Numbered from the stretch's first letter, positions 7,860 to 54,850 are shown. The stretch is 64,000 nucleotides of DNA from Minisyncoccota bacterium (GCA_041664925.1 JBAYJV010000002.1:8302-72301); one strand, 5' to 3'. Made by a program: numbers and translations. Notes: generated from the letters alone by a model not told the origin.

Positions 7860-7974
7860 GCCTAGTCAATATATGTTGGAGGTGAGACCTCCAACATATT
7901 TTATTCTATTCTTGACTTTTTTTGGAAAAATAGTAGGATAAGGGAAGGAGGAAGTCCTTCGACTTTGCTCAGGA

Positions 7975-10324: not shown

Positions 10325-10447
10325 GAGGTGTCTTTTTATCGTGATTCTGTCTTAAGTATAGCAAACTGCATTATTTTGTCAATAACCCTATCAATTGTTC
10401 GTAAGATGTGATACAATAGAACATATTAATTTACATAATTTAAAAAT

Positions 10448-14693: not shown

Positions 14694-15665
14694 ATGTTTA
14701 TTGATGATGTAACAATTAAAATAAAAGCCGGTGACGGCGGACGAGGAGTAGTTGCTTTCAATAGGACAAAAATGAGCCTAGGTCCGACTGGGGGCAACGG
14801 TGGCAATGGCGGCAACATTTACTTAGAAGGCGTATCTGATATCAGCGCGCTCGCCCAATTTCGTTACAAAAAAGAATTAGTCGCAAAAAATGGCGAAAAT
14901 GGAAAATCAAGCTTGAATGACGGTGAAACCGGAGAAGATTTAATCTTAAAAGTGCCAATCGGTACTGTCGTCCATAATCTTTCAACAAAAGAAGATTCAG
15001 AAATTATTTCCATTGGCCAGCGCTTATTAGTCGCTAAGGGTGGTTTAGGCGGTTATGGCAATTTTGTTTTTCGTTCGTCAACTAACACAACACCAAGACA
15101 AGCGACAGACGGAAGCGAAGGCGAAGAACGAATCTTAAGGCTTGAAATAAAACTGATCGCTGATGTCGGTTTTATAGGATTACCCAACGTTGGAAAATCT
15201 AGTCTTTTAAACGAACTTACCAACGCCCAAAGCAAAGTTGCTAATTACCCCTTTACTACGCTCACTCCAAATCTGGGCACTTATTATGAATTGATTTTAG
15301 CGGATATTCCCGGGCTAATCGAAGGCGCGTCTGATGGCAAGGGATTGGGCATAAAATTTTTGCGCCACGTTGAACGCACCAAAACTCTTTTTCATTTCAT
15401 ATCTTCAGAATCGACAGATCTTCTCAAAGATTATCAGGTTATTAGAAATGAACTCGGTGTCTATAATAAACAGCTTTTAGAAAAACCGGAATACATATTC
15501 TTGACAAAAACTGATTTATTTGAAAAAAAAGAAATTACCAAAAAAATTAATCAATTAAAGAAAATTAATAAAGAAATTATTCCTATTTCCATAATAGACG
15601 ACGAAAGTGTTAAAAAAGTCGAAATAATCTTGCGTAAAGTTATTAAAGAAAAATATTCACAGTAA
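14694..15665 (+). CDS. obg: GTPase Obg/CgtA
   Basis: N-terminal Obg fold with Gly-rich GGNGGNGGNIY, then a G domain (GLPNVGKSS, DIPGLIEGAS, NKTD-like LTKTD). Confidence 0.85.
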   Translation: MFIDDVTIKIKAGDGGRGVVAFNRTKMSLGPTGGNGGNGGNIYLEGVSDISALAQFRYKKELVAKNGENGKSSLNDGETGEDLILKVPIGTVVHNLSTKEDSEIISIGQRLLVAKGGLGGYGNFVFRSSTNTTPRQATDGSEGEERILRLEIKLIADVGFIGLPNVGKSSLLNELTNAQSKVANYPFTTLTPNLGTYYELILADIPGLIEGASDGKGLGIKFLRHVERTKTLFHFISSESTDLLKDYQVIRNELGVYNKQLLEKPEYIFLTKTDLFEKKEITKKINQLKKINKEIIPISIIDDESVKKVEIILRKVIKEKYSQ

Positions 15666-18559: not shown

Positions 18560-18706
18560 GACATTTTCTGTCAACTTTTTTCACAAAATCATGAAAACAG
18601 TTGATTTTTTATGTTAAATATGCTATAATAGATAGTAGAGAGAGGTTGGGATTTAAATAAAGAAAACTAAATGAAGCCCCGCACCAGAGCATAGCACGGT
18701 GCGGGG

Positions 18707-18757
18707 TGTAAGAGCTTCTAGTCTTACTACGTTCGACAAGAATCTCTAACAGGGGGT
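18707..18757 (+). promoter_or_regulatory. Conserved leader instance d (serves 18758-19102)
   Basis: GTAAGAGCTTCTAGTCTTACTACGTTCGACAAGAATCTCTAACAGGGGGTATG-ATG. Confidence 0.45.
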
Positions 18758-20977: not shown

Positions 20978-21158
20978 AAAAATCGGAGGCTCAGCCTCCG
21001 ATTTTCTACAACTGGCAATGGTTTAAACAATTCAATAAAAAAAACGAGATATGTGGGAGGCTCAGCCTCCCACACATATGTTAGTTTTCTGCGAAGTATT
21101 CAATAATCAAGTCGAAAGATTGAATAGATAAATATTTGGAAGTCTCACTTCCAAATAT
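20978..21158. repeat. Three consecutive GGAGG/GGAAG-loop-CCTCC/CTTCC palindromes in one intergenic region
   Basis: AAAATCGGAGGCTCAGCCTCCGATTTT; ATATGTGGGAGGCTCAGCCTCCCACACATAT; AATATTTGGAAGTCTCACTTCCAAATATT. Confidence 0.5.
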
Positions 21159-24154: not shown

Positions 24155-24453
24155 TCATTTTTTTTTGTTTCGTTGCTTGCCCGTTCGAAGCCTAAAGGCG
24201 AAGGAGGGTAGGGTTGTAATGTTGTCTGTCTCCTGCCTGACGGCAGTCAGGGCAGGCAGGAACCATTGACATTTACCACAATTATTATAGAATGGTGAGT
24301 AGTTCTTGGAAAAATCAAAATAATGTAATCCGCCTACGTCTTTCGATAGATTCATTTCATTTCCATAAATGGACTCAAGACTACGGCGAGATGTAAGTTT
24401 TTCTATTTTTCGTCTATGACTCAAAAAGAAAGAACTAACAAAGGAGGGACAAA

Positions 24454-25074
24454 ATGAGTCCATGGTTGGGAGCAATTCTTGTGGGAGTTGGTATTTGTGT
24501 GATTTCTTGGCTGATTATTAATTGGGCAGTGGGTAAGTCTCAACATTTCGGCGATAGCTTTGGAAAGATATTTTCATCTGTAATCATAGGTGTTATAGGA
24601 ACCCTAATCTTTTTCTTGGCTTCGACAGTTTATATTTCTGGACCGGTAGTTGATACTCGGAATAATCTTATCACTCACTACGGAACAAACACGCATATTT
24701 TGAGATGGTCTGAGGAAGCCAAGGCTTATGAAAGTGGATTTTTGAAATCCATTCCTATTTACTCGCAAACATTCAGAGTCATTATTGACCCAGCGATTGC
24801 TAAGCTACATCTTGAGATTACGGTTGTTCCGGGAGAAGACGACGAATCAATCATGGCGCAATATGAGAGAATTATTTCTCATGGGGACACTCTTGAGGCG
24901 TATATCAGGCGACTGACTTTCTTGTACGAAACAAGAGGGCTTTCCCAGAATCTTGATAACTTCCCAAATGACTACATCAAATTTCTTGAGCCTTTGTTAA
25001 AAGCATCGGGAGTGAAGGGACTTAGAATCTTTATAAATGGAAACGCAGTTCCCATCGTTACGCAAATTGAGTAA
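24454..25074 (+). CDS. Hypothetical N-terminally membrane-anchored protein (2 TM then soluble domain)
   Basis: AAAGGAGGG RBS. Promoter TTGACA..TATAGAAT at 24268-24297. Confidence 0.5.
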   Translation: MSPWLGAILVGVGICVISWLIINWAVGKSQHFGDSFGKIFSSVIIGVIGTLIFFLASTVYISGPVVDTRNNLITHYGTNTHILRWSEEAKAYESGFLKSIPIYSQTFRVIIDPAIAKLHLEITVVPGEDDESIMAQYERIISHGDTLEAYIRRLTFLYETRGLSQNLDNFPNDYIKFLEPLLKASGVKGLRIFINGNAVPIVTQIE

Positions 25075-25236
25075 CAATCAGCGAACCCTGTATTCAGCGT
25101 GGTACAGGGTGTTTTTAATTGAGTGCGTTTCTGAGTGTAACGAAGACTACGCAATCAATAACCCGTCCGTAGCTTTAGCGAAGGAGGGTTTTTTGTTTTC
25201 CCCAGTTTTGATTGCGACAGGATATAAAATTTGGTA

Positions 25237-25386
25237 AAATTGTAAATTAGTCATGATAACTCAAAGCTCAAATCTTAAAACTCAAAACAAAAACTTAAAA
25301 CCATTAAACTATTTAGCTTTGAATTTTGAGCTTTGAACTCTAAGCTATGGCTTTGACCTTTAACATTTAAGCTTTAAGTTATTTTC
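25237..25386. repeat. Low-complexity AAAACTCAAAGC-word tract; inverted partner at 26990-27120 flanking pduL-ackA
   Basis: AACCATTAAACTATTTAGCTTTGAATTTTGAG (25290-25325) versus CTCAAAATTCAAAGCTAAATAGTTTAATAGTTTTAAG (27041-27078). Similar tracts at 38500-38660, 49440-49530 and 57780-58010. Confidence 0.45.
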
Positions 25387-26984: not shown

Positions 26985-27111
26985 TAATTCTTTATAAACT
27001 CAAAGCGCAAAGTTCAAAACTCAAAACTACAACTCAAAATTCAAAGCTAAATAGTTTAATAGTTTTAAGTTTTCCTGCCTGTCGGCAGACAGGTGTTTTG
27101 AGTTCTAAGAT

Positions 27112-30128: not shown

Positions 30129-31028
30129 TCAGGAGCATGTTGCTGCTTCCAGCTGTCCCAGTAAACGGCTGTACTTTGGATGAGCTTCAAGCCACATTCT
30201 AATCTTTTCAAGCGATTCTTTTTCAATCTGACGAGCTCTTTCGCCAGAAATCCCATGCTGTCTGCCTATTTCCTCGAATCCTTGTTCTTCTCTTGAAGGA
30301 TTCATTCCGTAACGCGCCCTTAGGACGGCTGCTTCCCTTTGAGAAAGACCCAAGACCATCGCTTCAGAAATAAGCCTTCTTATAGAACTGTTTCTGATCT
30401 CTTCTCCGACAACTTTTTCTGGAGAAAAAGTTTCATCAATAATACCATTAACTTCAGCGGTCTCATCAGGGTCACTTTTAATGGGCGTGTCTAAAGACAG
30501 CACATCAAAAACTCCAAGAGCGGCGATTAAAGTTTTGGGATTAATCTTATTCTTTCTAGCAAAATCTACTATCGCTATTTCGGTATTACTATTGAGTCTT
30601 GCGTCGGGATGTTCTCTTGCGAATTTGACGATTGACCACTTAATATTTTGAGGCAATCTAATAGGAGAGGATATATCGTGAAGTTTTCTCCCAATCGTAT
30701 CGTCAATCCACCAAACTGCGTAAGTTGATGGTTTGCTGCCTTTTGTTGAGTCGAATTTTGCCGATGAATCGTAAAAAACACGAAGCAAAACTAAATAACA
30801 GTCATGAAGTAAATCAGCAATAGTTTCTTCGTCATTAAAGGTTTGGATCTTTACGAAAATTCTCTTAAGGATTAGCTTGGTCATGCTTAAAACTAAGCGT
30901 GCACAAGCTTCTTTATCGCCATTTCTGGCCTTTTTGGCTAGTTCTAATTGTTCTTCTTTTCTTTGAATTTCTGTGAACAAGCTTTTTTCTGGCATCTGGA
31001 CATGACTCTCAATCGTCGCTAGTGGCAT
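30129..31028 (-). CDS. Sigma-70 family RNA polymerase sigma factor (divergent paralog 1)
   Basis: Region 2 (STYAVWWIDDTIGR) and region 4 HTH (LSQREAAVLRARYGM...EEIGRQHGISGERARQIEKESLEKIR). Confidence 0.75.
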   Translation of the reverse strand: MPLATIESHVQMPEKSLFTEIQRKEEQLELAKKARNGDKEACARLVLSMTKLILKRIFVKIQTFNDEETIADLLHDCYLVLLRVFYDSSAKFDSTKGSKPSTYAVWWIDDTIGRKLHDISSPIRLPQNIKWSIVKFAREHPDARLNSNTEIAIVDFARKNKINPKTLIAALGVFDVLSLDTPIKSDPDETAEVNGIIDETFSPEKVVGEEIRNSSIRRLISEAMVLGLSQREAAVLRARYGMNPSREEQGFEEIGRQHGISGERARQIEKESLEKIRMWLEAHPKYSRLLGQLEAATCS

Positions 31029-31267
31029 TGAACATCCTCCTTTAGAATTTCCTTCTGAATGTAATGAAGAGTAGAAATTCTTAAGCCCTTCCGTAGCTTC
31101 GGCTTGCCCTGCCTACCCTGCCTACCGGCAGGCAGGCGGAGCGTAGAAGGGTAATAATTTTTTAACACTAGACTGTATTTTCATTATTAAAGAACAATAC
31201 TTGCCAACAATACTAACATATTTTTATAAAAAAGCAACCCTCCTACGCACCAGTATAAAAACAATTA

Positions 31268-31385
31268 TCCCTGAAACCCCGCACCAGTATCCTGCAGCAG
31301 AATAAATTCGCTTCAGGACAAGTAAATACGGTGCGGGGTTGTGATTGCGTATTCCTTCATAAATTCAGGAACGCACTCAATAACA
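31268..31385 (-). repeat. ~115-bp composite element copy 1 (minus orientation): TTATTGAGTGCG..CGCAATCA hairpin + long ACCCCGCACC(N~45)GGTGCGGGGT hairpin
   Basis: The reverse complement matches 35041-35156 almost base for base. Confidence 0.5.
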
Positions 31386-31478
31386 AAAAGGAGAGGGAAG
31401 CTTTCTTCCCTCTCTGGTCCCGCTTGCCATGTAGCGAGACGCCCCGAGCACTCCGCAAAGGAGGTTCGACAACGGTGC
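31385..31478 (-). ncRNA. Candidate small RNA D (promoter + intrinsic terminator unit)
   Basis: Minus-sense TTGACA (31507-31512), 16-nt spacer, TACAAT (31485-31490), then ~90 nt ending in GGAGAGGGAAGAAAGCTTCCCTCTCC + T-run (31390-31416). A DnaA-box-like TTATCCACA abuts the -35. Confidence 0.3.
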
Positions 31479-31533
31479 TTCTTTATTGTACCAAACACCT
31501 AGCCTCTGTCAAGAGATATTGTGGATAAGTTAA

Positions 31534-31896
31534 TCAAAGCGTCTTTAGAAAAGAACGAAACTTAAACTTAAAAAAGTATCTTGCGAAGAAAACGCTGATT
31601 GCGACGGGAATTGCTAGGCCGAGAAATGGCGAAACAAGGACAACTGTTCCTCCAAGAATCGTTTTATTGGTGTAGTTTTCCTTCGTAAGTAAATAGATAG
31701 CAAGATCGAATGTAATGTACATCGCAGCGGCTAGATTTAACAGAAGACCGAAGCCGATTGTCGTAATCATTTTCCCTGAAAAACCTGTAAATTGAAGTAT
31801 GATAACCAAAAGAACCGTTTCTATAATCAATGACGGAAAAAGAACTTTATAAATAAACTCTCGCAAAAACTGATCATTCTTATCCTGCGTCTTCAT
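31534..31896 (-). CDS. Small integral membrane protein (120 aa, 3-4 TM); leader-class cassette gene
   Basis: Conserved leader on minus strand (31897-31960) with SD AGAGAGGTG. Preceded further upstream by a CCTGCCTACCGGCAGG hairpin. Confidence 0.5.
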   Translation of the reverse strand: MKTQDKNDQFLREFIYKVLFPSLIIETVLLVIILQFTGFSGKMITTIGFGLLLNLAAAMYITFDLAIYLLTKENYTNKTILGGTVVLVSPFLGLAIPVAISVFFARYFFKFKFRSFLKTL

Positions 31897-31960
31897 GTTT
31901 TCACCTCTCTTAGAGATTCTTGCTGAATGACAGTGAAATTAGAAGCTCTTTACCCTGAGC
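31897..31960 (-). promoter_or_regulatory. Conserved leader instance e (serves 31534-31896)
   Basis: TAAAGAGCTTCTAATTTCACTGTCATTCAGCAAGAATCTCTAAGAGAGGTGAAAAC-ATG. Confidence 0.45.
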
Positions 31961-32266
31961 TTGTCGAAGGGTTAGACCCCGGCTTGCCCTGCCTACCGGC
32001 AGGCAGGCGGGACTACACTTGCAACTCTTTCATTATAAAACAAAAAGAAGGAAAGTCAAATGTAAACCTGTTAACCGTTAAGCGTAAACCGTGAACCGCA
32101 AACCTCGCATTTCGCGATTAACGAATAACGACTAATTTTCTTGCCCTTCCGAAGCCCTGCCTACCGGCAGGCAGGCTTGTGCGTAGGAGGGTTGCATTTT
32201 AATCAAAATGTGCTAGTATCGTTGGCAGTTATCATGGTTCTTTAATATTAACAAAGGAGGGGGGGG

Positions 32267-33256
32267 ATGATTGGACAACTAGAAGTTCTCTATGCTTATT
32301 TCAGAGAAATTAGCAGAACTCCTCTTTTAACCAAAGAAGAAGAAATTGAATTGGCTAAAAAAATTGCTCAAGGAGACAAAGAGGCAAAAGAAAAATTTAT
32401 TAGAGCTAATCTGGGATTAGTTGCTTCAATTGTACAAAGATATAGAGTAAGAGATTCTCATTTAAGTTATTTTGACTTGATCCAAGAAGGAACATTGGGC
32501 TTAATTAGGGCGGTTGAAAAATTTAATCCTTGTAAAGAATGTAGATTTGCTAATTATGCCGCTTGGTGGATTAGACAATCGGTCTTGGTGGCAGTAGCAA
32601 AACATAGTAACAATATTAGATTGCCATGGGATGCAAGACGGTTGGTTTCCAAATTTACAAGAGAGAGTTCTGACGTAGGACTTAGTATGACTAACGGCGC
32701 GATGGCAGATTTTTGCAGAAAACACGCTGGAACCAATCGTAAGATACTAATCGCTGCTCTCGGGGCTTATAATAATATTGTGTGCTTGAATTTATCTATT
32801 GGCTGCGATGACAGTGATGCTATTGAAAGACAAAGCCTAAGAGAGATTCCTATTGAAGAGGATGGATTTGGAGATACCAATACCATAAAAATTGTTCTTG
32901 TTTCTCAAGAAGCAATTTCCTTGATGACCATAATTGGCGATGATGGAGATGCTCCCGAAGAGTATGTTTTAGGCGAGCAAAATCCTCAAGAAGATGAGCT
33001 CAGAAAATTGCGCAAAAAAGAAATCTTAGAAAAGGCGATGAATGCTGTTCTTAATTCTAGAGAAATAGATGTTCTCACCTTGCGATTTGGATTGGGAGAC
33101 ATAAAAGAACTAACTCTTCAAGAAGTAGCAGAGCAATATCATCTTTCTCGAGAAAGAATCAGACAGATTGAAAAAAATGCTCTTGAAAAAATTAAATGTT
33201 ATCTCAGAGCAGAATATGGAGAACGTATTCATGAATTAGCAAGATACCTTGTGTAA
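32267..33256 (+). CDS. Sigma-70 family RNA polymerase sigma factor (divergent paralog 2, with ~100-aa insertion between regions 2/3 and 4)
   Basis: Region 1.2/2 (LTKEEEIELAKKIAQGDKEAKEKFIRANLGLV...IQEGTLGLIRAVEKF...YAAWWIRQ) and region 4 (LTLRFGL...TLQEVAEQYHLSRERIRQIEKNALEKIK). Confidence 0.8.
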   Translation: MIGQLEVLYAYFREISRTPLLTKEEEIELAKKIAQGDKEAKEKFIRANLGLVASIVQRYRVRDSHLSYFDLIQEGTLGLIRAVEKFNPCKECRFANYAAWWIRQSVLVAVAKHSNNIRLPWDARRLVSKFTRESSDVGLSMTNGAMADFCRKHAGTNRKILIAALGAYNNIVCLNLSIGCDDSDAIERQSLREIPIEEDGFGDTNTIKIVLVSQEAISLMTIIGDDGDAPEEYVLGEQNPQEDELRKLRKKEILEKAMNAVLNSREIDVLTLRFGLGDIKELTLQEVAEQYHLSRERIRQIEKNALEKIKCYLRAEYGERIHELARYLV

Positions 33257-33465
33257 AATGGTAAGCGGTCACTAAAGAATAGTGACCGCATTTATAATCC
33301 TTGCTTTTTCTTATAAATGTGTTAATATGGGGACCTAGAATAGTTCTTTAACTTAATGTAGTCCTACGGTCACGAATAAAGTCCTCCTTCACTAAAGTTA
33401 CGGCGGGACGTAAGAATCTTCATTTCTCGTAAACTCGAAAGAATCTTCTAACGGAGGTGGGAAAA

Positions 33466-34320
33466 ATGTTTGAATGGCAAAAAGGAATTAGAAGCTATCT
33501 TAAAGAAATTGGCAAAATTCCTCTTTTAACTAGAGAACAAGAATTTGCTTTAGCTGAAAGAGTTGCCAACGGAGACAAAAAGGCAACAGAAGAATTTGCT
33601 CTAGCGAATTTGCGATTAGTCGTTTCAGTCGCAAGAAACATTCATTATTATTCTCCCACGCTCAGCATGCTCGATCTGATTCAAGAAGGCAATATTGGTT
33701 TAATGAAAGCTATCGAGAAATTCGATCGCCATAAAGGCTATAAATTCTCCACATACGCGAAATGGTGGATTTGGCAAGCGATTTTGAGAGCAATATCGGA
33801 TCATGGTAGAGACATAAGACTACCGTCTCATATACTTGAATCAATTCGCAAGGCTCAAAGGAAAATTTCTCAAGAGAAAGATAGAGAAGAGGATCCAAGA
33901 GATTTAGGAGAAATTCTTGAAGAAGACGGATTGAGCGATGCGAGTATTGTTGGGATTATCTCTGCTACTCGCGGAAGACTTTCTTTGGATGTTGAACTTG
34001 GAGAAGACGGAGAAACTTTTGAAGAATATGCTGATGGCAAGCAACCTTCTCAAGAAGATGAATTTAATGCATTGAGAAAAAGAGAAATCATAAAAGAGGC
34101 GATAAATGAGACTCTTGATGATAGAGAGAAGGATATTATTAACTTGCGATTTGGGATGGATGGGACAAAAGCATTAACTCTTAAAGAAATATCAGCTCTG
34201 CATGATATTAGTCGAGAAAGAATTAGGCAAATTCAAATAAAAGCTCTTAGAAAGATCGGACACTATATTGAAACAAAATATAGGGAGCAAATGACGGACA
34301 TAGAAAAAGCGTTTTTATAG
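33466..34320 (+). CDS. Sigma-70 family RNA polymerase sigma factor (divergent paralog 3)
   Basis: LLTREQEFALAERVANGDKKA...ANLRLVVSVAR...IQEGNIGLMKAIEKFD...YAKWWIWQAI and region 4 (INLRFGM...TLKEISALHDISRERIRQIQIKALRKI). ATG is 5 nt after GGAGGTGG. The ORF track used the GTG at 33457. Confidence 0.8.
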   Translation: MFEWQKGIRSYLKEIGKIPLLTREQEFALAERVANGDKKATEEFALANLRLVVSVARNIHYYSPTLSMLDLIQEGNIGLMKAIEKFDRHKGYKFSTYAKWWIWQAILRAISDHGRDIRLPSHILESIRKAQRKISQEKDREEDPRDLGEILEEDGLSDASIVGIISATRGRLSLDVELGEDGETFEEYADGKQPSQEDEFNALRKREIIKEAINETLDDREKDIINLRFGMDGTKALTLKEISALHDISRERIRQIQIKALRKIGHYIETKYREQMTDIEKAFL

Positions 34321-34377
34321 CAGTTGCTAAGGATTGGTTAAAACTTGACAATGGGTAAAATTCTGTTAGTATAGTAA

Positions 34378-34486
34378 ACAGGAGCGCAGAGGTGATTCTC
34401 GGCGTTCTCTTGACTCCATAACGCTCCATTGGGGAGTATCTTGGTGATTCACACGGAAGGGGAAGATGGCTTTCCCTTCCTTTTTG
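34378..34486 (+). ncRNA. Candidate small RNA A
   Basis: TTGACA (34345-34350), 16-nt spacer, TAGTAT. Then ~105 nt ending in GGAAGGGGAAGATGGCTTTCCCTTCC + T5. Shares the GCG(T)TCTCTTGACTC core with sRNA B. Confidence 0.3.
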
Positions 34487-34532
34487 TTATCTGCGTTTCT
34501 GAGTTAAGCGAAGATTACGCAAATAACAATCC

Positions 34533-34650
34533 TGAGCGAAGCTTGCCCTGAACTTAGTTGAAGGGTCGAAGAATTTATCCTGAGCGAAGTTTGCCCTGAA
34601 CTTAGTTGAAGGGTCGAAGAATTTATCCTGAGCGAAGTCGAAGGATCCTC
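34533..34650. repeat. Tandem repeat, ~54-bp unit x 2.2
   Basis: AATCCTGAGCGAAGCTTGCCCTGAACTTAGTTGAAGGGTCGAAGAATTT / ATCCTGAGCGAAGTTTGCCCTGAACTTAGTTGAAGGGTCGAAGAATTT / ATCCTGAGCGAAGTCGAAGG. Confidence 0.6.
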
Positions 34651-34684
34651 TTGACATAAAATAAAATTCTGTTAGTATTATATA

Positions 34685-34792
34685 CGAGAAACAAGAAAAA
34701 TGCTGGGTTGATACCCAGCGCTCTCTTGACTCACGTTCCATAGTGGAACGTTCCAATGGTTCGGAGAGGGAAGATGGCTTCCCTCTCTTTTT
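34685..34792 (+). ncRNA. Candidate small RNA B
   Basis: TTGACA (34651-34656), 16-nt spacer, TAGTAT (34673-34678). Terminator GAGAGGGAAGATGGCTTCCCTCTC + T5 (34764-34792). Confidence 0.3.
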
Positions 34793-34912
34793 ATTGACTC
34801 TGTTTTTGAATGAAATGAAAATTACAGAGTTAACAACCCCGCACCGTATTTACTTGTCCTGAAGCGAATTTATTCTGCTGCAGGATACTGGTGCGGGGTA
34901 TTTATCCTCTTG
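34793..34912 (+). repeat. Composite element copy 2
   Basis: TTATTGACTCTGTTTTTGAATGAAATGAAAATTACAGAGTTAACAACCCCGCACCGTATTTACTTGTCCTGAAGCGAATTTATTCTGCTGCAGGATACTGGTGCGGGGT. Confidence 0.5.
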
Positions 34913-34941
34913 ACATAGAATAAAGTTTTGATAACATAAAT

Positions 34942-35047
34942 ATTGAGGAAGGTAGCTCCTCACTCCCGGTGTCCTGGCGTCCTCCTGGTGGACGTCCTGC
35001 CACCCGCCGTGCGCTGGAGAGGGAAATAGTTTCCCTCTCCTTTTTTT
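34942..35047 (+). ncRNA. Candidate small RNA C (GC-rich)
   Basis: TTGACA (34909-34914) with a weak -10 (TAACAT). GC-rich body ...GGTGTCCTGGCGTCCTCCTGGTGGACGTCCTGCCACCCGCCGTGCGCTGG. Terminator GGAGAGGGAAATAGTTTCCCTCTCC + T8 (35015-35047). Confidence 0.3.
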
Positions 35048-35156
35048 ATTGAGTGCGTTCCTGAATTTATGAAGGAATACGCAATCAATAACCCCGCACC
35101 GTATTTACTTGTCCTGAAGCGAATTTATTCTGCAGCAGGATACTGGTGCGGGGTTT
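35041..35156 (+). repeat. Composite element copy 3
   Basis: TTATTGAGTGCGTTCCTGAATTTATGAAGGAATACGCAATCAATAACCCCGCACCGTATTTACTTGTCCTGAAGCGAATTTATTCTGCAGCAGGATACTGGTGCGGGGT. Confidence 0.5.
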
Positions 35157-35204
35157 ATTATTGTACTTCGGGGTTTACGCTCTGGTGCTGGTTTTTTTTA
35201 CAAT

Positions 35205-35435
35205 TAAATATCCACCCATATCCATAAATATCATCCGCTCGGGGCGGATAAATATCCATTAATGTCTATGAATTTTAAGAATTATAATTTAAATATTGTT
35301 TCGTATTTCGGATTTTGATATTCGGATTTTATTATATATATAATATTGTAGCTCTGTTTGAGTTATCCACAGAATCTTAGAAAAGTTATCCACAGATTAT
35401 AGGCGCTTTTTCAGGTTTATCACTATCCATGCATT
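35205..35435. promoter_or_regulatory. DnaA-box cluster with adjacent AT-rich tract (oriC-like or DnaA-regulated region)
   Basis: Perfect TTATCCACA at 35363-35371 and 35386-35394 (direct, 23 bp apart). 7/9 or 6/9 matches near 35209, 35221, 35263, 35417 and 35424. AT-rich 35281-35350 (...TTTCGTATTTCGGATTTTGATATTCGGATTTTATTATATATATAATATTG). Confidence 0.35.
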
Positions 35436-35772
35436 CTTTGACAATGATCTAGTTTTTTTGGTAGGATTGGTTATAAAGAAAGAGGAGAAATATATTTCAT
35501 CGCTAACAAAAATTTGTTAGAAACAACAAAATGCATTGTTTGTCTTTGTTTGTAGGGGGGACAAACGGCTCATTTAAAAACCAACACGAGAGAGGATTGG
35601 TTTTTTTTGTTTAAAATCGTTGTGTAGATGTCCGACATCTACAGCCAAGCGAGAAGGAACAGAACCTTAAAAACGGAAAAATTATTTACACTAGTGTTGA
35701 TAATTGATTATTGAAAGTTGAAAATTAATTCGCAAGCTTAGCTAAAAATGTGTGACAACATTAAAGCTTCGC

Positions 35773-35895
35773 GTCATCCTGAGTGTTTCCTGTCATTCCG
35801 CACTTGATGCGGAATCCAGGAAATAAAACAGATTCCTGCTCGCCTTGCTGTCGAAGCAGGCCTATGCAGGAATGACAGGATTATATCAGGATGAC
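35773..35895. mobile_element. 123-bp MITE-like element with nested inverted repeats
   Basis: GTCATCCTGAGTG...CCTGTCATTCC...GGAATGACAGG...ATCAGGATGAC. Inner hairpins TTCCGCACTTGATGCGGAA and CCTGCTCGCCTTGCTGTCGAAGCAGG. Confidence 0.4.
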
Positions 35896-36110
35896 AAACA
35901 TAAAATGGTCGACCACACATCTAAGCTTATTATTGAAAGGTTAATTAACCTTTTCTCTGATTTTCAACGTATCGTAGGGCGTAGTACGAAATACGCAATA
36001 CGAAATACGATTTGAAAAATCGAGAACTTAAATTGATCTTAGTTATGAAAAAAGAATGAAGAAACCAAAGGAGGCTTCTGCATTTCAAAATCATAACTTA
36101 AATTAAAAAA

Positions 36111-37208: not shown

Positions 37209-37445
37209 ACAGATAATGATATAGGCGGGGGATTTCCAGCGCCTTGATAGGCACGGAAAAATTCCTTCGTGAAGGGGGAGGCTCTCACTGTCTCAATGAG
37301 ACATGAGCGCCTTCTCCGGAGAGGCTTGTGGCTGACCGTAGCCGTTAACCGCGAATCCTCCTTCGTTTCGGTTTAACCGGGACTACGGACGGACGCAGTC
37401 GTTAATCGTGAATCGTCGGCGACAAACTTCTCTGAACATATAATC
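37205..37445 (+). promoter_or_regulatory. GC-rich (~52%) structured intergenic leader between two AT-rich secreted-protein genes; candidate cis-regulatory RNA
   Basis: Multiple stems: TGTCTCAATGAGACA; GCCTTCTCCGGAGAGGC; CCGTAGCCGTTAACCG...CGGTTTAACCGGGACTACGG. Confidence 0.25.
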
Positions 37446-37501: not shown

Positions 37502-38455
37502 ATGAAAAAGATTTATTTAGCCATTACATTACTATTAGCTTCAATTTTTGTCTTGCCTCAATTTGCCGGTGCAATTGGACAAGTAACTCAACCAATTGTC
37601 TTAAAGGATGTTTTAAGGGGACAGACAGTCCAAGCAGATTTAATATTGCTTAATTCGGACACAAAAGTTATTACCTATGAATTATCAGCCGAAGGAGCAA
37701 TTGCTAAATGGGCGAAGTTTTACAAGAAAGATGACTCAATTAATCCAATTACGACAATTCAAGTTCCAGCTACAAGCACAATAGGTTGTGTTATAAAATT
37801 AACTATTCCTCAAGATACGCCCAACGGTGAATATAAAGGACAAGCAATGATTACAACCATAGAAACAGAAGGCGAAACAGCAGGAGAATCAAACGCCTCT
37901 ATTAGATTGAGGATTGGAAGAGATATTTCCATTACTATTACAGACCAAGAAATTCTTAAATTCACAGCATTAGTAACCCCCATGAAGTATGTAATTGCAA
38001 GCAACGAATTACTAAAAACGAGAATTATTTACAGCAACCAGGGCAATATTTTAATTAAACCAACGGTTGATTTTAAAATTTTGAAAGATAATCAGGTTAT
38101 TTTTAACGCGATTTATCCTTATCCAGAAGGAGATGAAGGAGTTATTCCTTTTACCCAAAAAATCATCCCTCTAATTGAATGGCCTACTAGTGGACACGAA
38201 AATGGTATGTATCAAGCACAGATTAAAACACTATTAAATGGCGTAGTACAAGGTGAGTATAAATTTGCATTTGAAGTTGGTCGTGATCTCTCTTGGTATT
38301 TGGCAGCGCTTGCTTCAATCGGTCCAGGAAAAGTTGGTTTGATTTTGATTGCGATTGGAATTGTGCTGATTGGGATATTTGCGGTAAGGACATTCGTCTT
38401 TAAAAAAAAAGATTGGGAACTAGCCGCAGGGTTTTTTAGAAACCTATTCTCGTAA
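37502..38455 (+). CDS. Secreted protein with C-terminal TM anchor
   Basis: Signal peptide MKKIYLAITLLLASIFVLPQFAGA. C-terminal LILIAIGIVLIGIFAV followed by a basic tail. Confidence 0.55.
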   Translation: MKKIYLAITLLLASIFVLPQFAGAIGQVTQPIVLKDVLRGQTVQADLILLNSDTKVITYELSAEGAIAKWAKFYKKDDSINPITTIQVPATSTIGCVIKLTIPQDTPNGEYKGQAMITTIETEGETAGESNASIRLRIGRDISITITDQEILKFTALVTPMKYVIASNELLKTRIIYSNQGNILIKPTVDFKILKDNQVIFNAIYPYPEGDEGVIPFTQKIIPLIEWPTSGHENGMYQAQIKTLLNGVVQGEYKFAFEVGRDLSWYLAALASIGPGKVGLILIAIGIVLIGIFAVRTFVFKKKDWELAAGFFRNLFS

Positions 38456-38675
38456 GAGTAAGTTTAAAACTCCTGCCTACCGGCAGGCAGGCAAAAGTCA
38501 AAAGTTAAAGCCACAGTTCAAAAATCAAAACTTTAGTAGCTCATAAGTTTTAAGTTATGGTTTTGCACTTTAAGCTTTGCGCTTTGAATTAAATACAATG
38601 AAATTAAGATTTAAACATTGTTTCGAGTTTCGGATTTAGAAATTCGAATTTAAGCAAGAGATTTTTAAAAGTATA

Positions 38676-42881: not shown

Positions 42882-42969
42882 ATTTTTCCCACTTCAATTC
42901 ACTAATGTACGAGATTCGACCTCGTACATTTTATATCTTGACAAAAAGAACGGTTTTGATAATATAGAT

Positions 42970-43072
42970 AGTGGCAATCCTGCAACCCACGGATGCTGGA
43001 TGCCAGGGGTAATTGGTACCCCACCGTACCCTCCCGCGCAGAGAGGGAGGACGAGCCTCCCTCTCCCTTTTC
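42970..43072 (+). ncRNA. Candidate small RNA E (same promoter/terminator architecture; shares TCCTGC(A/C)ACCC(A/G)C..GCTGG motif with sRNA C)
   Basis: TTGACA (42938-42943), 16-nt spacer, TAATAT. Terminator GAGAGGGAGGACGAGCCTCCCTCTCC + T-run (43041-43071). The overlapping 72-aa minus ORF is judged spurious. Confidence 0.3.
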
Positions 43073-43152
43073 TTCGATTCATAGGAATTGAAAAAAACAA
43101 ATCCCGCATCACACGATACGGGGTTTTTTGATTGCGTTTCTGAATTATTATT

Positions 43153-47648: not shown

Positions 47649-48246
47649 ATACTTTTGTTTAATATTTTATGACAGGAAAACAGATCACTCGACCTTTAAA
47701 ACAAAAAAAGCTCACAAAAAAATGAGAGCTGTTAAACTAATCTATTTCCCCTCCTATCATGATGAAATGTTTCGATGAAATACTTAAGAGAATATTTTAT
47801 CAAATCCTGAAGGTATTTTTCAATGTGGATAACTCATTATTATGTTTCCGAGGTAACGAGGAATTACATAATAATGACCCCGGCACGCCGGGGTTATTGA
47901 TTGCGTAGTTTCTCATTTTATTCGAAAACGCGACACCCTCCTTCACTAAAGTTACGGACGGGTTATTGACTCTGTAATCTTTCGCATAGACTTAAGAATA
48001 GAGTCAATAAAATGAGGGCCTGTTTTTCTTACAGACCCTCGCAATGCATTAGCCCACTATAGAGGTTATTGTGACTCCACTCTTATGATTATACTAAAAA
48101 ATTAATCGTTTGCAATATCTTGGAATTATCCGCCTTAACTAAAGTTACGGCGAGATTATTAACTGTGTAATCTTCGCCTTGCTCAGAAACGCAGTCAATA
48201 AAAAGAGAGCCCGCGCACTTTGCACGGGCTCCTACTTTGAAACTCT

Positions 48247-49287
48247 CTACTGAACGGTTACTTCGTACCGTCCAGTCACCTCCTCTCCGTTAAGAGAGGC
48301 GGTAACCGTCCATGTTCCGGAGTGGAAGAACTTGACCTTGATGTATTGGCCAAAATCTCCCCACACCTTCACGATCTCGAAGTCATCGCCGAGAACCGGC
48401 GACGAATCGCCGCAGCACCAAGCGAAGTCCCAAGAGATCTTCGTCTTGTTGCAGCCACAGCCACAATCTGGCTCCGATGGGCAAGGGACGATACCTTGAA
48501 TTCCGACGCTCTGTTCATCGAAGACATTTCTGCACTGGTCGCATTCATCGAAACACGGCCAGTCGTTGAAGAGAACTGCGATCTCGAATTCATCGTATGC
48601 CGAGACGCATCCTCTCTCCGGTTCCAGACGGTCCAATACGATCGAATCGCATGGGTCATCGCACGGATCGTCGGGACAAGGCGGCGTTGGGTCGCAGCAC
48701 TCCTCAACCTTTAGGGTTGCGGTCTTATATGCGACCGTTCCCGCATCGTCCCGTACCGTCAGGTAAATGGTCTTCGTTCCGGCCGATCCGAATGTGAAAG
48801 TCGTGGACGAGTCGGAACTCACGTGGCCATCACTTGAGGACCATTCATAGGTAATCGGGCGACTGTGTTCGATAACCGCCGATACCCGCGTCGGGATGTT
48901 CTTGCAGACAGGATTGAGGTCGATGTTGATAGACGTAATCCTGACGAACGGCTTCTCTCCGACGGTGATGGTAATCGAGTCGCTTGCCGTCTCGGTGCCA
49001 CACATCCCGCTGTTGGTCACCGTAACCGTTGCAGTGTAGGTGCCAACGTTTTGGTAGACGTGGATTGGGTTCTCTTCGGAACTTGTTCCACCGTCTCCGA
49101 ATGACCATGCGCGCGTCTTATCTGCACAAGTAGTTACGGCACTGAACGCGACCGTCAAGGGCGCGTAGCCGCTGGTTCGATCAGCCGAGACTTCGACTGT
49201 GGGCGGAACTGTCATACATCCGCCCAGACCGAGCGCCAGTACTACGACCAGCGCGCCAAGCAGTACAAACATCCGTCCTCGCTTCAT
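48247..49287 (-). CDS. Lipoprotein with PKD domains and Cys-rich C-terminal domain (GC-rich island)
   Basis: Lipobox LALGLGGC. PKD: GYAPLTVAFSA...WSFGDGGTSSEENPIHVY..GTYTATVTVTN. C-terminal EECCDPTPPCPDDPCDDPCD...CGCGCN...WCCGD. Confidence 0.7.
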   Translation of the reverse strand: MKRGRMFVLLGALVVVLALGLGGCMTVPPTVEVSADRTSGYAPLTVAFSAVTTCADKTRAWSFGDGGTSSEENPIHVYQNVGTYTATVTVTNSGMCGTETASDSITITVGEKPFVRITSINIDLNPVCKNIPTRVSAVIEHSRPITYEWSSSDGHVSSDSSTTFTFGSAGTKTIYLTVRDDAGTVAYKTATLKVEECCDPTPPCPDDPCDDPCDSIVLDRLEPERGCVSAYDEFEIAVLFNDWPCFDECDQCRNVFDEQSVGIQGIVPCPSEPDCGCGCNKTKISWDFAWCCGDSSPVLGDDFEIVKVWGDFGQYIKVKFFHSGTWTVTASLNGEEVTGRYEVTVQ

Positions 49288-49561
49288 TCTGAACCTCCTT
49301 AGGTTCGTATTTGTTTTTTTTGTTTGTGTACATAGGGAATCTTAACTTCCCTTTCTACTATCCATTATAGCATATTAGAACACTAAAGTCAAGGATTTTG
49401 GTGAAATATTTATATTTGTGAACTTAATATGTAAAAAGAAACAATAAATAATATAACTTAAAATTCAAAACTCAAAGCGCAAAACAACAATTTAAAACTT
49501 AAAACTATTTAATTTTTATTAACTATGCAAACAAAAACCCCGTATTGTTTGATACGGGGAA

Positions 49562-50488
49562 TTAGTGATCATTAGTGATTACCCAAAGAACTTTTGGTAA
49601 AACGCTAATCTTGATTGTATTCGTTGGCAATTCAATCGGTTCGCCGTCAACTTGAGCGGAAAGGATGTCATCGTCTTCGTCTTCATCTTCTATAATAATC
49701 TTTATTTCTTTTCCTTCAAATGTGTGTAAACGCGGCAATCTGTCAAGTTTTCCCGTTGTCATTTGAATGACATATTTGAGTCTTTCTTGAAGCGATGGCA
49801 GATCCTCAATTACAAGCAGATTCAAGATGCCATCGGAAATACTGCCCTGAAGATTGATTGGAAAATAAGAACCTTCGCGCTTGCCGTTGTGAACGCCGAC
49901 AAAAAAGGTTTCACCTTCAAAAGCAACTCTACCGTCAATCTCAATTCGCACCTGTCTAATATTGGGATTTTGCAATTCATTAATCATTGGCAGGCCATAG
50001 CGAAGTTCTTTGAAAGGCAATCTTCGAAAGATTGGATGTTTGTGAGCCAAATGATCAATATCTGCATCAATGCCGATACTAAAGACATTCAGGAAGATAA
50101 GCTTATCAACTAGCCCGACATCAGCTTGAATTCTTGCGCCAGACATAAGCGCCTCAAGAGCTTTCTTGGGATTTTGGGGCATTCCAAGAGAAGCAATCGC
50201 AAAATCATTGGATGTGCCAAGCGGCAGAACTCCGAGAGCGACATCTGTACCCATAAGTTCTCGGCCAATGAGATTGACAGTGCCATCGCCGCCACAAGCG
50301 ACAATGATTTTTTCACCTTTTAAAATTGCTTCCTGACAAGCTTTTTGCGCTTCTTCTTGATTATTCGTAATCCTGAAATCAAAGGCGATGCCGCTCTTTT
50401 TAAGCAACGGCAAGATTCTTTTCAAAAATATTTGACAACCAATACTTTGAGATGCGTTTCTATTAATTATAAAGAACATTGAGAACAC
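49562..50488 (-). CDS. Diacylglycerol/lipid kinase catalytic-domain protein (YegS/DgkA-like)
   Basis: ...KIIVACGGDGTVN..., GVLPLGTSNDFA. Conserved leader upstream on minus strand (50489-50556). Confidence 0.65.
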   Translation of the reverse strand: MFSMFFIINRNASQSIGCQIFLKRILPLLKKSGIAFDFRITNNQEEAQKACQEAILKGEKIIVACGGDGTVNLIGRELMGTDVALGVLPLGTSNDFAIASLGMPQNPKKALEALMSGARIQADVGLVDKLIFLNVFSIGIDADIDHLAHKHPIFRRLPFKELRYGLPMINELQNPNIRQVRIEIDGRVAFEGETFFVGVHNGKREGSYFPINLQGSISDGILNLLVIEDLPSLQERLKYVIQMTTGKLDRLPRLHTFEGKEIKIIIEDEDEDDDILSAQVDGEPIELPTNTIKISVLPKVLWVITNDH

Positions 50489-50556
50489 CTCCTTTAGAGT
50501 TTCTTGACGAACGAAGTGAGTACTAGAAAATCTTAAGTCCCGCCGTAGTTCCGGTA
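50489..50556 (-). promoter_or_regulatory. Conserved leader instance f (serves 49562-50488)
   Basis: CTTAAGATTTTCTAGTACTCACTTCGTTCGTCAAGAAACTCTAAAGGAGGTGTTCTCA-ATG, preceded by a GTTCCGGTTTACCGGAAC hairpin. Confidence 0.45.
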
Positions 50557-51174
50557 AACCGGAACAGAGGAGGACAACTTCATTAGCTTATTTAGTCTTG
50601 ACGAGGGCGGACTTTATTTACGACCGTAGGACTACCATCATCTCCACTCATATCTTACTCTTTTGGAGTTTGGTTGCAATGGATAAAACAATTACCCGTC
50701 TACGCTGTCTCCTACGCTAAACCTGCCTGCCCTGACTGCCGTCAGGCAGGCGTCAGGCAGGGCTATGGATGACCGAGGAAAGCTTCGGCAGGGTTATTGA
50801 ATCTGTAAATCTTTCATTATGCTCAAGAACAGAGTCAACCCTGACACCAGAGCAAAGCTCGGTGCAGGGTTTGATTTTCGTTTCCCTTCATAAATTCAGG
50901 GACGAAAATCAATTAAAAAAAGGGACAGAATGAGATTCCTAGGTAAATCTCACCTGTCCCTTGCGCTAGCTAGGCTGCGAAGTTGGCATCACTCTTGCGC
51001 GAGAGCAACGCTTTCCTCGTAGGTTTTGACTGCGGCTCTCTGGAATGAAAGCGCAATCGGACTGAAAGAACTGTGCCATCTCCATACGAGGGAGTTGGCG
51101 GTACTCTACTTTTTCCTGTGCTCTATACGATGGAGCGACAGGGCGACAAACTTACTTGGTTAGACTACCAGATT

Positions 51175-52107
51175 TTACTCCGGGAGGTTGTTGGTTCCGC
51201 GGAAATCAATGAGGTAGCCGACGCTGGTGTGCTGTGGCAACGACGGCCAGTAAGCACCGGTACCAGCCCCAGACTGCAGGTTCAGGGGAACCGTATCAAC
51301 ATAGTTCACGTTATTAGCGAACGTTACCTGATGGGTAATTGATCCGACGACATTATCGGCATCAACTTCCTGATTGTGAGTCGTGTCGGTCGTACCCTTT
51401 GCATTGAAATCCATACCAACCGGGTTGTTCGTGCCTGCTCCGATGTAAGAAGAACCAGAACCGGAAGCGGCGACATCACCCATAAGGGTATTGGAGAGGT
51501 ACTGACAGTAAGACGTCGGCTTAACCATCGTCACAATACCAGCGTCATTCGTTGCCAGAGCGACCTGAGCGGTATGCGTGATGGTCGAACCGGACTGGTT
51601 GAAGAGCACATTCGCGACACCGCCGCCACCAGGGATAATGATCGTAGCATCAAGAGCGCTTTCAACATCGAAGGTGTCGTTCTTGGTGCGGATCGAGACA
51701 TCGTAGTTACCAGCCACGCTGGTGTCGACAAGGAATCCGTTGGTGGGGTTCAATCCGTGCACATCATCGTTCGCGTTGTGTCGGAATCGAATCGCCTGCG
51801 CCTGATTATACCCAGCCGCATCCAGGGTCTGATTATCCAGGTTAAACGTCCCGTAGTAGGGGTTAACCGGAGTAGTCTTTACCTGACTCGTCAGAGTTCC
51901 CTGAGAAATACCGTCAACATTGACGGTCGTCGTTACGGGATTGATGGAGCCAGGGAAGTTGGACGGGCCGACATTTGTGGTAGCGTCGATCTGCATGCTT
52001 CCGCTGTCCATGTACCAAGAATTGGTCACGGTTGCATCCGCAAACGTCGCAACACCCACACCCAACGCCATCACGAGAGCCAGAACACAGATCATTACTC
52101 GCTTCAT
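51175..52107 (-). CDS. Secreted Thr/Asn/Gly-rich protein, unknown function (GC-rich island)
   Basis: Signal peptide MKRVMICVLALVMALGVGVATFA. The 'both strands open' pattern is typical of high-GC coding DNA. Minus strand chosen by signal peptide and SD. Confidence 0.5.
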   Translation of the reverse strand: MKRVMICVLALVMALGVGVATFADATVTNSWYMDSGSMQIDATTNVGPSNFPGSINPVTTTVNVDGISQGTLTSQVKTTPVNPYYGTFNLDNQTLDAAGYNQAQAIRFRHNANDDVHGLNPTNGFLVDTSVAGNYDVSIRTKNDTFDVESALDATIIIPGGGGVANVLFNQSGSTITHTAQVALATNDAGIVTMVKPTSYCQYLSNTLMGDVAASGSGSSYIGAGTNNPVGMDFNAKGTTDTTHNQEVDADNVVGSITHQVTFANNVNYVDTVPLNLQSGAGTGAYWPSLPQHTSVGYLIDFRGTNNLPE

Positions 52108-53268: not shown

Positions 53269-53545
53269 ATCCCTCTCCTTTTTTCTTTTTATGAATGCGT
53301 TTGTAAAAGAACTTTAACATCCTAGCATACAAAAATATAATTGTCAATAGCTGATGATAATTTGATGCGATTAACCCTGAAGTACAATAAATTGACTTCA
53401 GGATTATTGACTGCGTAATCTTCGCTGTTAATGTATTATCCTCCTTCGCCAAGGCTTCGGAAGGATTTTAATTTTGTTTCTCTTTATAAATTCAGAGACG
53501 AAATTAAAAAATAGCCAGTATGCTTTTCATACTGGCTAAACGAGA

Positions 53546-54604: not shown

Positions 54605-54787
54605 TTAGGTACCTTCTGTTTTTGTTGCTTCTTCTTCTGGAATATACCATTCTATACCAGAAAGATCCATTACGTTAAGAAAAGCACAGATAAATTCTCT
54701 TAAAAGAGAACGAATCTTCAAAATTAAACCAACAAGAACTGTAAAGAAGAGTATCAACAACCACCCCCACCAAGGCATATTTTTCAC
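54605..54787 (-). CDS. Small membrane protein (60 aa)
   Basis: MKNMPWWGWLLILFFTVLVGLIL... with SD and conserved leader (54788-54850). Confidence 0.4.
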   Translation of the reverse strand: MKNMPWWGWLLILFFTVLVGLILKIRSLLREFICAFLNVMDLSGIEWYIPEEEATKTEGT

Positions 54788-54850
54788 CTCTCTTAGAGTT
54801 TTTTCTTGAGTATAACGAAAGTAAAAAACTCTTATATCCTGAGCGAAGTC
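54788..54850 (-). promoter_or_regulatory. Conserved leader instance g (serves 54605-54787)
   Basis: TATAAGAGTTTTTTACTTTCGTTATACTCAAGAAAAAACTCTAAGAGAGGTGAAAAAT-ATG, preceded by GTCCTTCGACTTCGCTCAGGA (as upstream of instance b). Confidence 0.4.

Follow-up and report, generated by a model that had tools for sequence, protein, structure and literature searches.

Hairpin repeats behind intrinsic terminators probably form an extragenic mosaic in a Candidatus Paceibacterota genome

Insertion sequences (IS) of the IS200/IS605 group move as single-strand hairpins and insert next to a short specific sequence, with no target duplication. Repetitive extragenic palindromes (REP) and bacterial interspersed mosaic elements (BIME; also REPIN), described with RAYT proteins in Enterobacteria and Pseudomonas, are extragenic imperfect palindromes found mostly downstream of coding regions (PMC2817692, PMC3116915, PMC3733652). 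The pneumococcal BOX (boxA-boxB-boxC), RUP and SPRITE repeats are modular interspersed repeats of a narrow clade, judged parasitic yet affecting co-transcribed genes, with slow turnover (PMC3049150), and group IIC introns are found directly behind terminator stem-loops and point in the direction of transcription (PMC1702495). Here we analyse a 64-kb stretch of DNA (the window) from a metagenome-assembled genome named at NCBI 'Candidatus Paceibacterota bacterium', a member of the Candidate Phyla Radiation (CPR), in which two hairpin repeats follow one another behind terminators: H1, a 46-nt TTATTGA hairpin, and H2-long, a 64-nt hairpin with a GC stem. The position directly after H1 is called slot 2. 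With moderate confidence, we read these repeats as a lineage-specific, non-autonomous mosaic of extragenic palindromes in Candidatus Paceibacterota, comparable to REP, BIME and BOX, with H1 anchored on terminator tails. Our literature searches found no paper linking CPR/Patescibacteria genomes to repeats of the REP type or to miniature inverted-repeat transposable elements (MITE).

The G+C content of the window is ~38%. The 192-kb ENA metagenome contig ERZ27249449:k141_1677569 contains a sequence identical to it, and JGI/NCBI and Logan contigs of the organism also match. Our census covers ~81 kb of the host genome and ~21 kb from each sister genome, and the numbers are accordingly small. L013 and L014 are the syntenic loci of two sister species, reached via acetate-kinase homologues (protein identity 88% and 85%, respectively), and L003 and L021 are related contigs of uncertain species that bear the same repeat families, L021 being a near relative of L003 (92-98% identical).

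Three composites of H1 and H2-long are present in the window at 31268-31385(-), 34793-34912(+) and 35041-35156(+), with the sequence given for them in a first-pass annotation, which a model had made from the DNA; we call them D, B and C after the short units that precede them. The annotation put the copies at ~90% identity, a figure that averages over a near-invariant and a diverged part. The H2-long parts are 99-100% identical (31276-31342 is 100% complementary to 34833-34899 over 67 nt, and 31274-31340 matches 35090-35156 at 99% over 67 nt), but the H1 parts reach only 71-93% (93% over 54 nt between D and C, 31335-31388 vs 35041-35094), and the direct pair B and C is 83% identical over the entire composite (34785-34899 vs 35040-35154). 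Copies C and D have terminator, H1 and H2 in common (95% over 142 nt), and the similarity ends at the terminator. When the three window copies and that of L003 are aligned together with their flanks, the edges of the invariant H2-long block fall exactly at the AA/CCCC junction and after GGGGT. Downstream of it the sequences are unrelated between copies (tails TATTTAT, TTTATTATT and TTTCAGG), and the adjoining upstream H1s are of different subtypes. Because the block has such sharp edges between unrelated flanks and differing H1 subtypes, the composite is two independent, non-coding hairpin repeats that abut.

Folding recovers two adjoining hairpins in each copy, as first described, with -44.9 to -47.5 kcal/mol and z-scores of -4.9 to -7.5 versus shuffles. 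H2-long had been drawn as a 13-bp GC stem with a ~40-nt loop; a 13-pair basal stem is indeed present, but it is made of 10 bp, a bulge and 3 pairs, and the loop holds a structured inner hairpin. The consensus fold from an alignment of all distinct H2-long sequences has 24 pairs, with the once-bulged basal stem, an asymmetric internal loop and the inner hairpin. H2-long is itself nested, its outer stem being common to short-loop relatives; CCCCGCACC occurs eight times in the window, with 0.10 occurrences expected by chance. Covariation in homologs, proposed by the annotation as a check, is seen as compensatory changes in both hairpins. In the alignment of 16 H1 copies, pairing holds in 89.7% of cells and compensatory changes occur at 8 of 13 pairs; none of 500 shuffles reaches the observed pairing score, and slid registers fall to 30-45% paired. 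The H1 termini TTATTGA/TCAATAA are conserved over subtypes, and 15 of 16 copies retain the apex YCU-GA-loop-GA-AGR, in which a covarying short stem and tandem G.A/A.G lead to a 6-8-nt loop. H2-long begins ACCCC and ends GGGGT, has two compensatory changes among its 24 pairs, and its one-sided changes (3/3) give U.G; a 15-nt loop sequence, GCGAATTTATTCTGC, is conserved between diverged copies. These substitution patterns show selection for the hairpin, in a folded strand that could be RNA or single-stranded DNA. Strand-specific wobble in H1 (5 G.T vs 5 A.C pairs, no excess) is uninformative on RNA-level selection, and the 3 vs 1 pairs of H2-long are too few to interpret.

To place H1 copies we used a covariance model, R1, run on the window, its 8.3-kb and 8.5-kb flanks, L003, L013, L014 and L021. 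Seventeen strong copies were obtained (11 in the window, three in L014 and one each in L003, L013 and L021), of which 16 match at E <= 1e-5 and one, L014 16161-16206, at 26 bits; the two flanks hold no copy. Eight strong window copies lie beyond the three composites, along with several halves, consistent with the TTATTGA family reported earlier at about 10 other sites. All H1 and H2 copies are intergenic. Of the 17 strong H1 copies, 15 begin at most a few nt from the T-run of an intrinsic terminator and share the orientation of the terminated unit; the other two are an array-internal copy and one in L014 with no terminator upstream. Each of the three window composites, which the annotation had placed right after terminators, likewise begins in the T-run of a terminator-like hairpin, and these terminators close ~110-nt units with a near-consensus TTGACA-16-TAnnAT promoter. 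Our scan for intrinsic terminators picks out the hairpins that precede H1, whereas H1 and H2-long themselves go unflagged. In all larger intergenic regions, read one by one, the recurrent layout is an intrinsic terminator with its T-run, H1, 'AA' and a GC-rich CCC...GGG hairpin. H1 orientation tracks the local transcription unit and not replication, copy D lying on the - strand among + genes and the copy at 57437 on the + strand among - genes. About one third of the terminator-like sites in our own scan have H1, and several others just TTATTGA or the left half of H1. Half H1s at 43123, 54981, 55728 and 53401 are a sign of decay typical of repeat DNA, and hairpins often sit nested in one another's loops.

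Six short promoter-to-terminator units of ~75-130 nt, similar to small RNA (sRNA) genes, occur in the window (Table 1; lettered where H1 follows). Five of the six have in common a CTCTTGACA..TGnTAnnAT promoter and a GAGAGGGA(A/G)G terminator stem and differ in their bodies; four cluster around three sigma-70 paralogue genes, and none matches Rfam. The first-pass annotation assigned the element to these units, either as a co-mobilised cassette or as a 3' processing or stability signal. In the window all three H2-long copies do follow sRNA-like units, H1 is found on five of the six, and the A/B type is a real structured RNA, with three hairpins, eight compensatory pairs and a conserved unpaired CUCUUGACUC in two paralogues and two orthologues (host, L013 and L014). 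We nevertheless find this assignment very improbable. A canonical terminator stands between sRNA and element, and H1 follows protein genes about as often as sRNA-like units: the latter account for seven of the 15 terminators (A, B, C, D and F in the window; D and B/A-type orthologues in L014 and L013), the former for seven or eight, L003 and L021 representing one orthologous site in two contigs. The protein-gene cases in the window are 24454-25074, 48247-49287, 53546-54592, 56595-57401 and the unit ending at 50916. H2-long also lies behind a protein-gene terminator in L003/L021 and, in a diverged composite of L014, behind none; sister-species orthologues of sRNA D and the A/B types keep H1 or half of it, with another hairpin in place of H2; and since the likeness of C and D stops at the terminator, the sRNA bodies, which are unrelated, were not co-duplicated. 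A lack of association between copies and sRNA units, named by the annotation as evidence to the contrary, is therefore seen in part, within a small sample. Its structural description and its idea of a duplicative or mobile repeat hold up, but the idea that sRNA and element move as a unit is not supported; placed behind both kinds of terminator alike, H1 and H2 are no sRNA accessory.

Orthologous sites display how the arrangement changes. In L014, an H1 with a different, compensated stem lies behind both the sRNA D orthologue and the B-type one, and after it come H2b, a further GC hairpin, and then a stranded right arm of H2-long, (A)TACTGGTGCGGRGT. In L013, only the left half of H1 is found behind sRNA D, H1 and a TCCTGAGC-type hairpin stand after the A/B-type sRNA, and H2-long is not present in the locus. 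L003, the sole match of our one metagenome scan, has an H2-long identical at 67/67 positions, following an H1 most like that at window 48156-48201, and L021 has the orthologous H2-long with three substitutions, two of them C-to-T changes that keep G.U pairs. The diverged H1+H2-long of L014 matches the L021 composite at ~79% and retains the 15-nt loop sequence. For the array at 50.9 kb the sole close contig, L024, ends within the terminator, just before H1. From the L003, L014 and L013 comparisons, H1 tends to persist at orthologous terminators, slot 2 turns over and H2-long is not bound to sRNAs. Slot 2 is equally variable within the window, where H2-long (B, C and D) is one of several occupants (Table 1): CCCGTCCGTAGC...GGAGGG hairpins fill it at 25162, 47960 and 48130, and H2b (ACCCTGAAGTCAATTTATTGTACTTCAGGGT) at 57482 and 53374. 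The position is thus exchangeable, and H2-long has recently multiplied or been homogenised.

Pfam annotation, from our own scans and precomputed lists, shows no gene for a transposase, integrase or reverse transcriptase in the window. L003 and L021 encode Y1_Tnp (IS200/RAYT-type) proteins (Pfam E = 1e-10; in L021 at 10001-10693 and 14868-15551), and each Y1 gene has GGAGGCTYAGCCTCC-type palindromes (ATATGTTGGAGGCTTAGCCTCCAACATAT-type) on both sides, not H1 or H2, that are 94-97% identical to window 7362-7393 and 21041-21077. Therefore, the related contigs carry an active-looking REP/RAYT-style system with palindromes other than H1/H2. In the ~24 kb of L003/L021 genome seen, no cognate RAYT gene flanked by H1 or H2 was found. 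The REP-like family ATATGTGGGAGGCTCAGCCTCCCACATAT to which these palindromes belong has four sites in the window, which is without a Y1 gene, and further sites at L003 1754-1791 and 2527-2564 and at L021 9919-9954, 10690-10727, 14857-14908 and 15611-15650.

Compared with REP and BIME, H1 and H2 likewise form mosaic clusters with several families per genome and compensated hairpins, and are non-autonomous; the clade, too, encodes Y1 transposases flanked by palindromes, here of a different family. They are extragenic and predominantly downstream, 15/17 directly following a terminator. Both are imperfect hairpins, but of 46 and 64 nt compared with the usual 20-40 bp of REP (PMC3733652), and neither has an unpaired terminal GTAG or CGTC tag. 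REP often exceed 100 copies per genome; the ~81 kb covered here contain 11 H1 and three H2-long, clustered. Unlike BIME, in which one superfamily alternates at regular spacing, the H1-H2-H1-H2 arrays keep one orientation and join unrelated families, and H1 is fused to a terminator T-run. With BOX, RUP and SPRITE the repeats share modularity, extensive secondary structure and restriction to a narrow clade, but they are unrelated to them in sequence, BOX modules are not terminator-anchored, and the terminal inverted repeats of RUP and SPRITE are IS-like. Group IIC introns may serve as a precedent for terminator targeting only in logic, as no ribozyme, intron or reverse transcriptase is involved here. 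The analogy to IS200/IS605 would similarly lie in targeting logic, as no element here has two ends marked by distinct left and right hairpins. What sets this system apart is that H1 is fused, in a fixed orientation, to a terminator tail and that the second position is exchangeable.

The 5' arm TTATTGA of H1 continues the T-run of an intrinsic terminator, and the repeat points with the terminated unit, be it a protein gene or an sRNA. In the mosaic reading that we prefer, H1 would target the TTATTGA tail of terminators by preference, and copies would spread as single-strand DNA hairpins via a trans-acting HUH/Y1-type transposase or by gene conversion. They may persist at terminators because the position is harmless, at most stopping or buffering read-through into a close next promoter. 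As the elements lie past a canonical terminator, they would be transcribed only on read-through, and a secondary role as a read-through barrier is possible. In a bolder version, which we regard as rather unlikely, H1 would be a terminator-targeting single-hairpin mobile element whose 5' arm is the terminator's own TTATTGA tail, pairing with TCAATAA at the 3' end of the element; H1 would then be a docking slot for GC hairpins including H2-long, giving a two-tier oriented insertion system, maybe co-opted as 3' insulators.

The same arrangement may also be read functionally. H1 and H2 could be selected 3' RNA modules that protect the next close promoter or unit. Transcribed on read-through, they would either hold back 3'-exonucleases or form a fail-safe terminator or insulator, partly bidirectional, and they would have been copied by duplication or conversion of whole 3' ends. 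We consider this the main alternative and a tentative one. A terminator always precedes the modules and the next unit follows them, H2-long B ending only 10 nt before the -35 box of unit C, and their orientation is strictly that of transcription; both hairpins are upheld by compensatory changes, the one-sided changes of H2-long all yield G.U pairs in the sense strand, three species retain H1 after orthologous sRNAs, and terminator, H1 and H2 are common to C and D at 95%. Tandem or fail-safe terminators are similar in having GC-rich hairpins stacked behind a first terminator, and some slot-2 hairpins are clear terminators, the one at 25162-25188 having a full T-run (TTTTTTG). However, a real U-tract is missing after most slot-2 hairpins, H1 is AT-rich and has no U-tract behind it, H2-long has a 44-nt structured loop and a T-rich tail only, and terminator function leaves near-identical copies unexplained. 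The four H2-long copies are identical through this loop beside differing H1s, which indicates recent copying and not conservation. Furthermore, slot 2 is swapped at orthologous sites with broken half hairpins left behind, ~2/3 of terminator-like sites do without H1, H1 has no G.T excess over A.C (5 vs 5), and the diverged L014 composite has no terminator upstream. The two accounts are compatible, since a parasitic repeat may be tolerated as harmless or mildly useful.

Several observations weigh against the mosaic reading. H1 is clustered, with none in window positions 1-25,000 or in either flank. No transposase can be tied to H1 or H2, because the palindromes around the Y1 genes are of a different family. 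The orthologous comparisons yielded no clean pair of empty and filled sites and no target-site duplication; the one orthologous comparison of this kind, window 25086-25200 vs L014 8338-9110, is confounded by an extra gene. Other assemblies of the organism (ENA, JGI/NCBI and Logan) are 99.9-100% identical across the overlap, so insertion polymorphism or presence-absence variants are not seen among them. The 67/67 identity of the L003 copy is not readable as horizontal spread, L003 being of uncertain species. Finally, co-orientation with terminators, H1 kept behind orthologous sRNAs in three species and the conserved apex fit a selected function equally well.

The conserved parts of the hairpins could also mark H1 and H2 as double- or single-stranded DNA sites for a host protein (nucleoid, topoisomerase or replication-associated) that recognises the hairpin shape, as reported for some REP/BIME. 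The TTATTGA/TCAATAA termini and the tandem G.A apical motif, constant across H1 subtypes, and the GCGAATTTATTCTGC loop sequence of diverged H2-long copies would agree with such recognition, and copy C adjoins a region with two DnaA-type boxes. Yet the analysis yielded no candidate protein, the copies are clustered and differ in distribution between sister species, and orientation tracks transcription units; we hold this explanation to be improbable.

Other element classes were considered and rejected. An IS-derived MITE does not fit, the flanks of the four H2-long copies sharing no duplicated target and the window being without IS, and the ends of an rve-family IS in L014 are not similar. The H1 termini do not fit the RYYYAAC...GTTRRRY pattern of integron attC sites, and the window has no tyrosine recombinase/integrase; a retron msr/msd was dropped in the absence of a reverse transcriptase and a coding element in that of an open reading frame. 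The CUGA...GA motif is no kink-turn or C/D-box, being a plain stem with tandem G.A pairs and lacking a 3-nt bulge. Rfam at gathering thresholds gave no match over the window, the best sub-threshold match on the element reaching 21 bits (E = 2.7), and Rfam at E-value thresholds on 29.5-36.5 kb and ARAGORN on the window gave nothing relevant. A 23-mer of H2-long and an H1 subfamily pattern had no match in a genome-contig collection; viral-contig scans and plasmid/phage BLAST likewise gave none, a lone hit in L025 being a chance 17-mer within coding sequence. H1 is missing from ~35 kb of relatives with 63-65% AckA identity, which is weak evidence because 33 kb of the host genome is also without it.

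CPR/Patescibacteria genomes are small, and the intergenic DNA of this host is largely made of modular hairpins whose placement is fixed with respect to promoters, Shine-Dalgarno sites and terminators. Such repeats break short-read assemblies, Logan contigs stopping within a palindrome at 31134; they also mimic predicted sRNAs and terminators, or lengthen them, and could serve as strain markers. If the anchoring reflects target choice, a miniature, protein-less example would join the few known terminator-homing elements; if it reflects function, it would show how a reduced genome insulates tightly packed transcription units.

Table 1 Positions of hairpin repeats and neighbouring features in the window (bits, score with model R1).
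Feature	Position	Strand	Remarks
H1 copy B	34791-34836	+	Starts in T-run of sRNA-unit B terminator 34763-34788; 58.3 bits
H2-long copy B	34836-34899	+	Nested: ACCCCGCACC...GGTGCGGGGT around inner TCCTG..CAGGA hairpin
H1 copy C	35046-35091	+	Behind sRNA unit C terminator 35016-35040; 66.9 bits
H2-long copy C	35091-35154	+	One substitution, in inner stem; followed at 35155-35195 by right half of H2b hairpin and CTCTGGTGCTGG remnant
H1 copy D	31339-31383	-	Behind sRNA unit D terminator 31414-31391; 58.1 bits
H2-long copy D	31276-31339	-	~25 nt upstream of promoter of sigma-factor gene 30129-31028(-)
H1 after sRNA unit A	34484-34529	+	58 bits; slot 2 not H2-long: 2.3 tandem copies of a 48-nt TCCTGAGCGAAG-type nested hairpin, 34529-34638
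H1 25116-25161, slot-2 hairpin CCCGTCCGTAGCTTTAGCGAAGGAGGG and T-run	25116-25188	+	Behind terminator of protein gene 24454-25074; 62.3 bits
H1 48156-48201 and slot-2 ATCTCGCCG..GGCGGAT	48130-48201	-	Behind terminator of PKD-domain gene 48247-49287(-)
Array: terminator, H1 47963-48010, slot-2 hairpin, degenerate H1, CCCCGGCGTGCCGGGG	47870-48010	-	Behind short promoter-to-terminator unit F, 48130-48014
Array: terminator, H1 50870-50915, short-loop H2 relative, second H1 50794-50841	50794-50915	-	Short-loop relative ACCCTGCACC..GGTGTCAGGGT at ~50839-50869
H1 53466-53510	53374-53510	-	Behind terminator of gene 53546-54592(-); then ATCCTTCCG..GGAGGAT, right half of H1 (53401-53426) and H2b hairpin (53374-53404)
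H1 57437-57482 and H2b hairpin (ACCCTGAGGTCAATTTATTGTACTTCGGGGT)	57437-57512	+	Behind terminator of + gene 56595-57401; surroundings otherwise - strand
Short-loop relative of H2 stem, CCCCGCACC-12 nt-GGTGCGGGG	18677-18706	+	Inside 5' leader
sRNA-like units	34345-34486, 34651-34794, 34910-35047, 42925-43075	+	
sRNA-like units	31512-31385, 48130-48014	-	
ATATGTGGGAGGCTCAGCCTCCCACATAT palindromes	7362-7393, 7871-7904, 20984-21000, 21041-21077		REP-like
5'-leader hairpins	7972-8024, 18707-18750, 33410-33455	+	End in Shine-Dalgarno
5'-leader hairpins	7228-7285, 31030-31082, 31898-31950, 50482-50534, 54781-54833	-	End in Shine-Dalgarno
CCTGCCTACCGGCAGGCAGG palindromes	7444-7476, 24223-24260, 27074-27093, 31107-31139, 31978-32010, 32146-32178, 38462-38494, 50721-50753		GC-rich
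Sigma-70 paralogues	32267-33256, 33457-34320	+	
Sigma-70 paralogue	30129-31028	-	
AT-rich blocks	25243-25330, 26996-27073, 38546-38597, 49454-49512, 57795-58000		Degenerate 7-nt repeats

The short relative of the H2 stem that the annotation had placed at 18677-18706 is present, is kept at the orthologous leader in L013 (5032-5061) and recurs at L014 17252-17282 before a sigma-factor gene. Leaders also carry a hairpin of their own, TAAGAGnTTyT...loop...AgAAtCTCTAAGrGAGG; in at least eight unrelated genes its end is the Shine-Dalgarno sequence immediately ahead of the start codon, and another GC hairpin often precedes it. The GC-rich palindrome family CCTGCCTACCGGCAGGCAGG is often nested in the loop of a CCCTTCC..GGAGGG hairpin, and two independent Logan assemblies break in one of its copies, at 31134.

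The three sigma-70 paralogues lie side by side. Two of them share a paralogous TTGCaT..TGnTAGTAT promoter region (31197-31253 vs 32176-32232, 84%), and the nearest database relative of the middle one outside the host organism is just 38% identical. Downstream of composite C, a gene-free region of ~900 bp is kept in a sister species (window 35200-36100; L013 17650-18650). It holds two TTATCCACA DnaA-type boxes (35357 and 35382), an AT-rich tract, ATATCCA repeats and a promoter-to-terminator unit at 35438-35610, and may represent an origin of replication or else a regulatory region; neither dnaA nor dnaN was recognised among the window's genes.

L003 720-1310 consists of ~16 tandem 36-nt units, alternating aGGCAAyAA and aGGCGAGCCAA with 8-9 variable bases between them, and a similar array is found at L021 13167-13471. 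The L003 array has a consensus TTGACA/TATAAT promoter upstream and a terminator downstream; it is probably non-coding, because many units carry TAA, and it resembles a repeat-rich RNA that may be a protein sponge. Between the stop codon of gene 51175-52107 and its terminator lies a GC-rich stretch of 210 nt, 50966-51175(-), which is ~80% identical in L024 over the aligned region, with long invariant runs (the protein there is 85% identical), and may be a conserved 3' untranslated region or a separate structured RNA. A GC-rich, hairpin-dense stretch of ~190 nt at 37210-37400, upstream of gene 37502-38455, has no Rfam match at gathering thresholds and may be a structured leader. Several genes are also preceded by AT-rich blocks of degenerate 7-nt repeats (AACTCAA / AAGCTTA), partly arranged as inverted pairs (Table 1).

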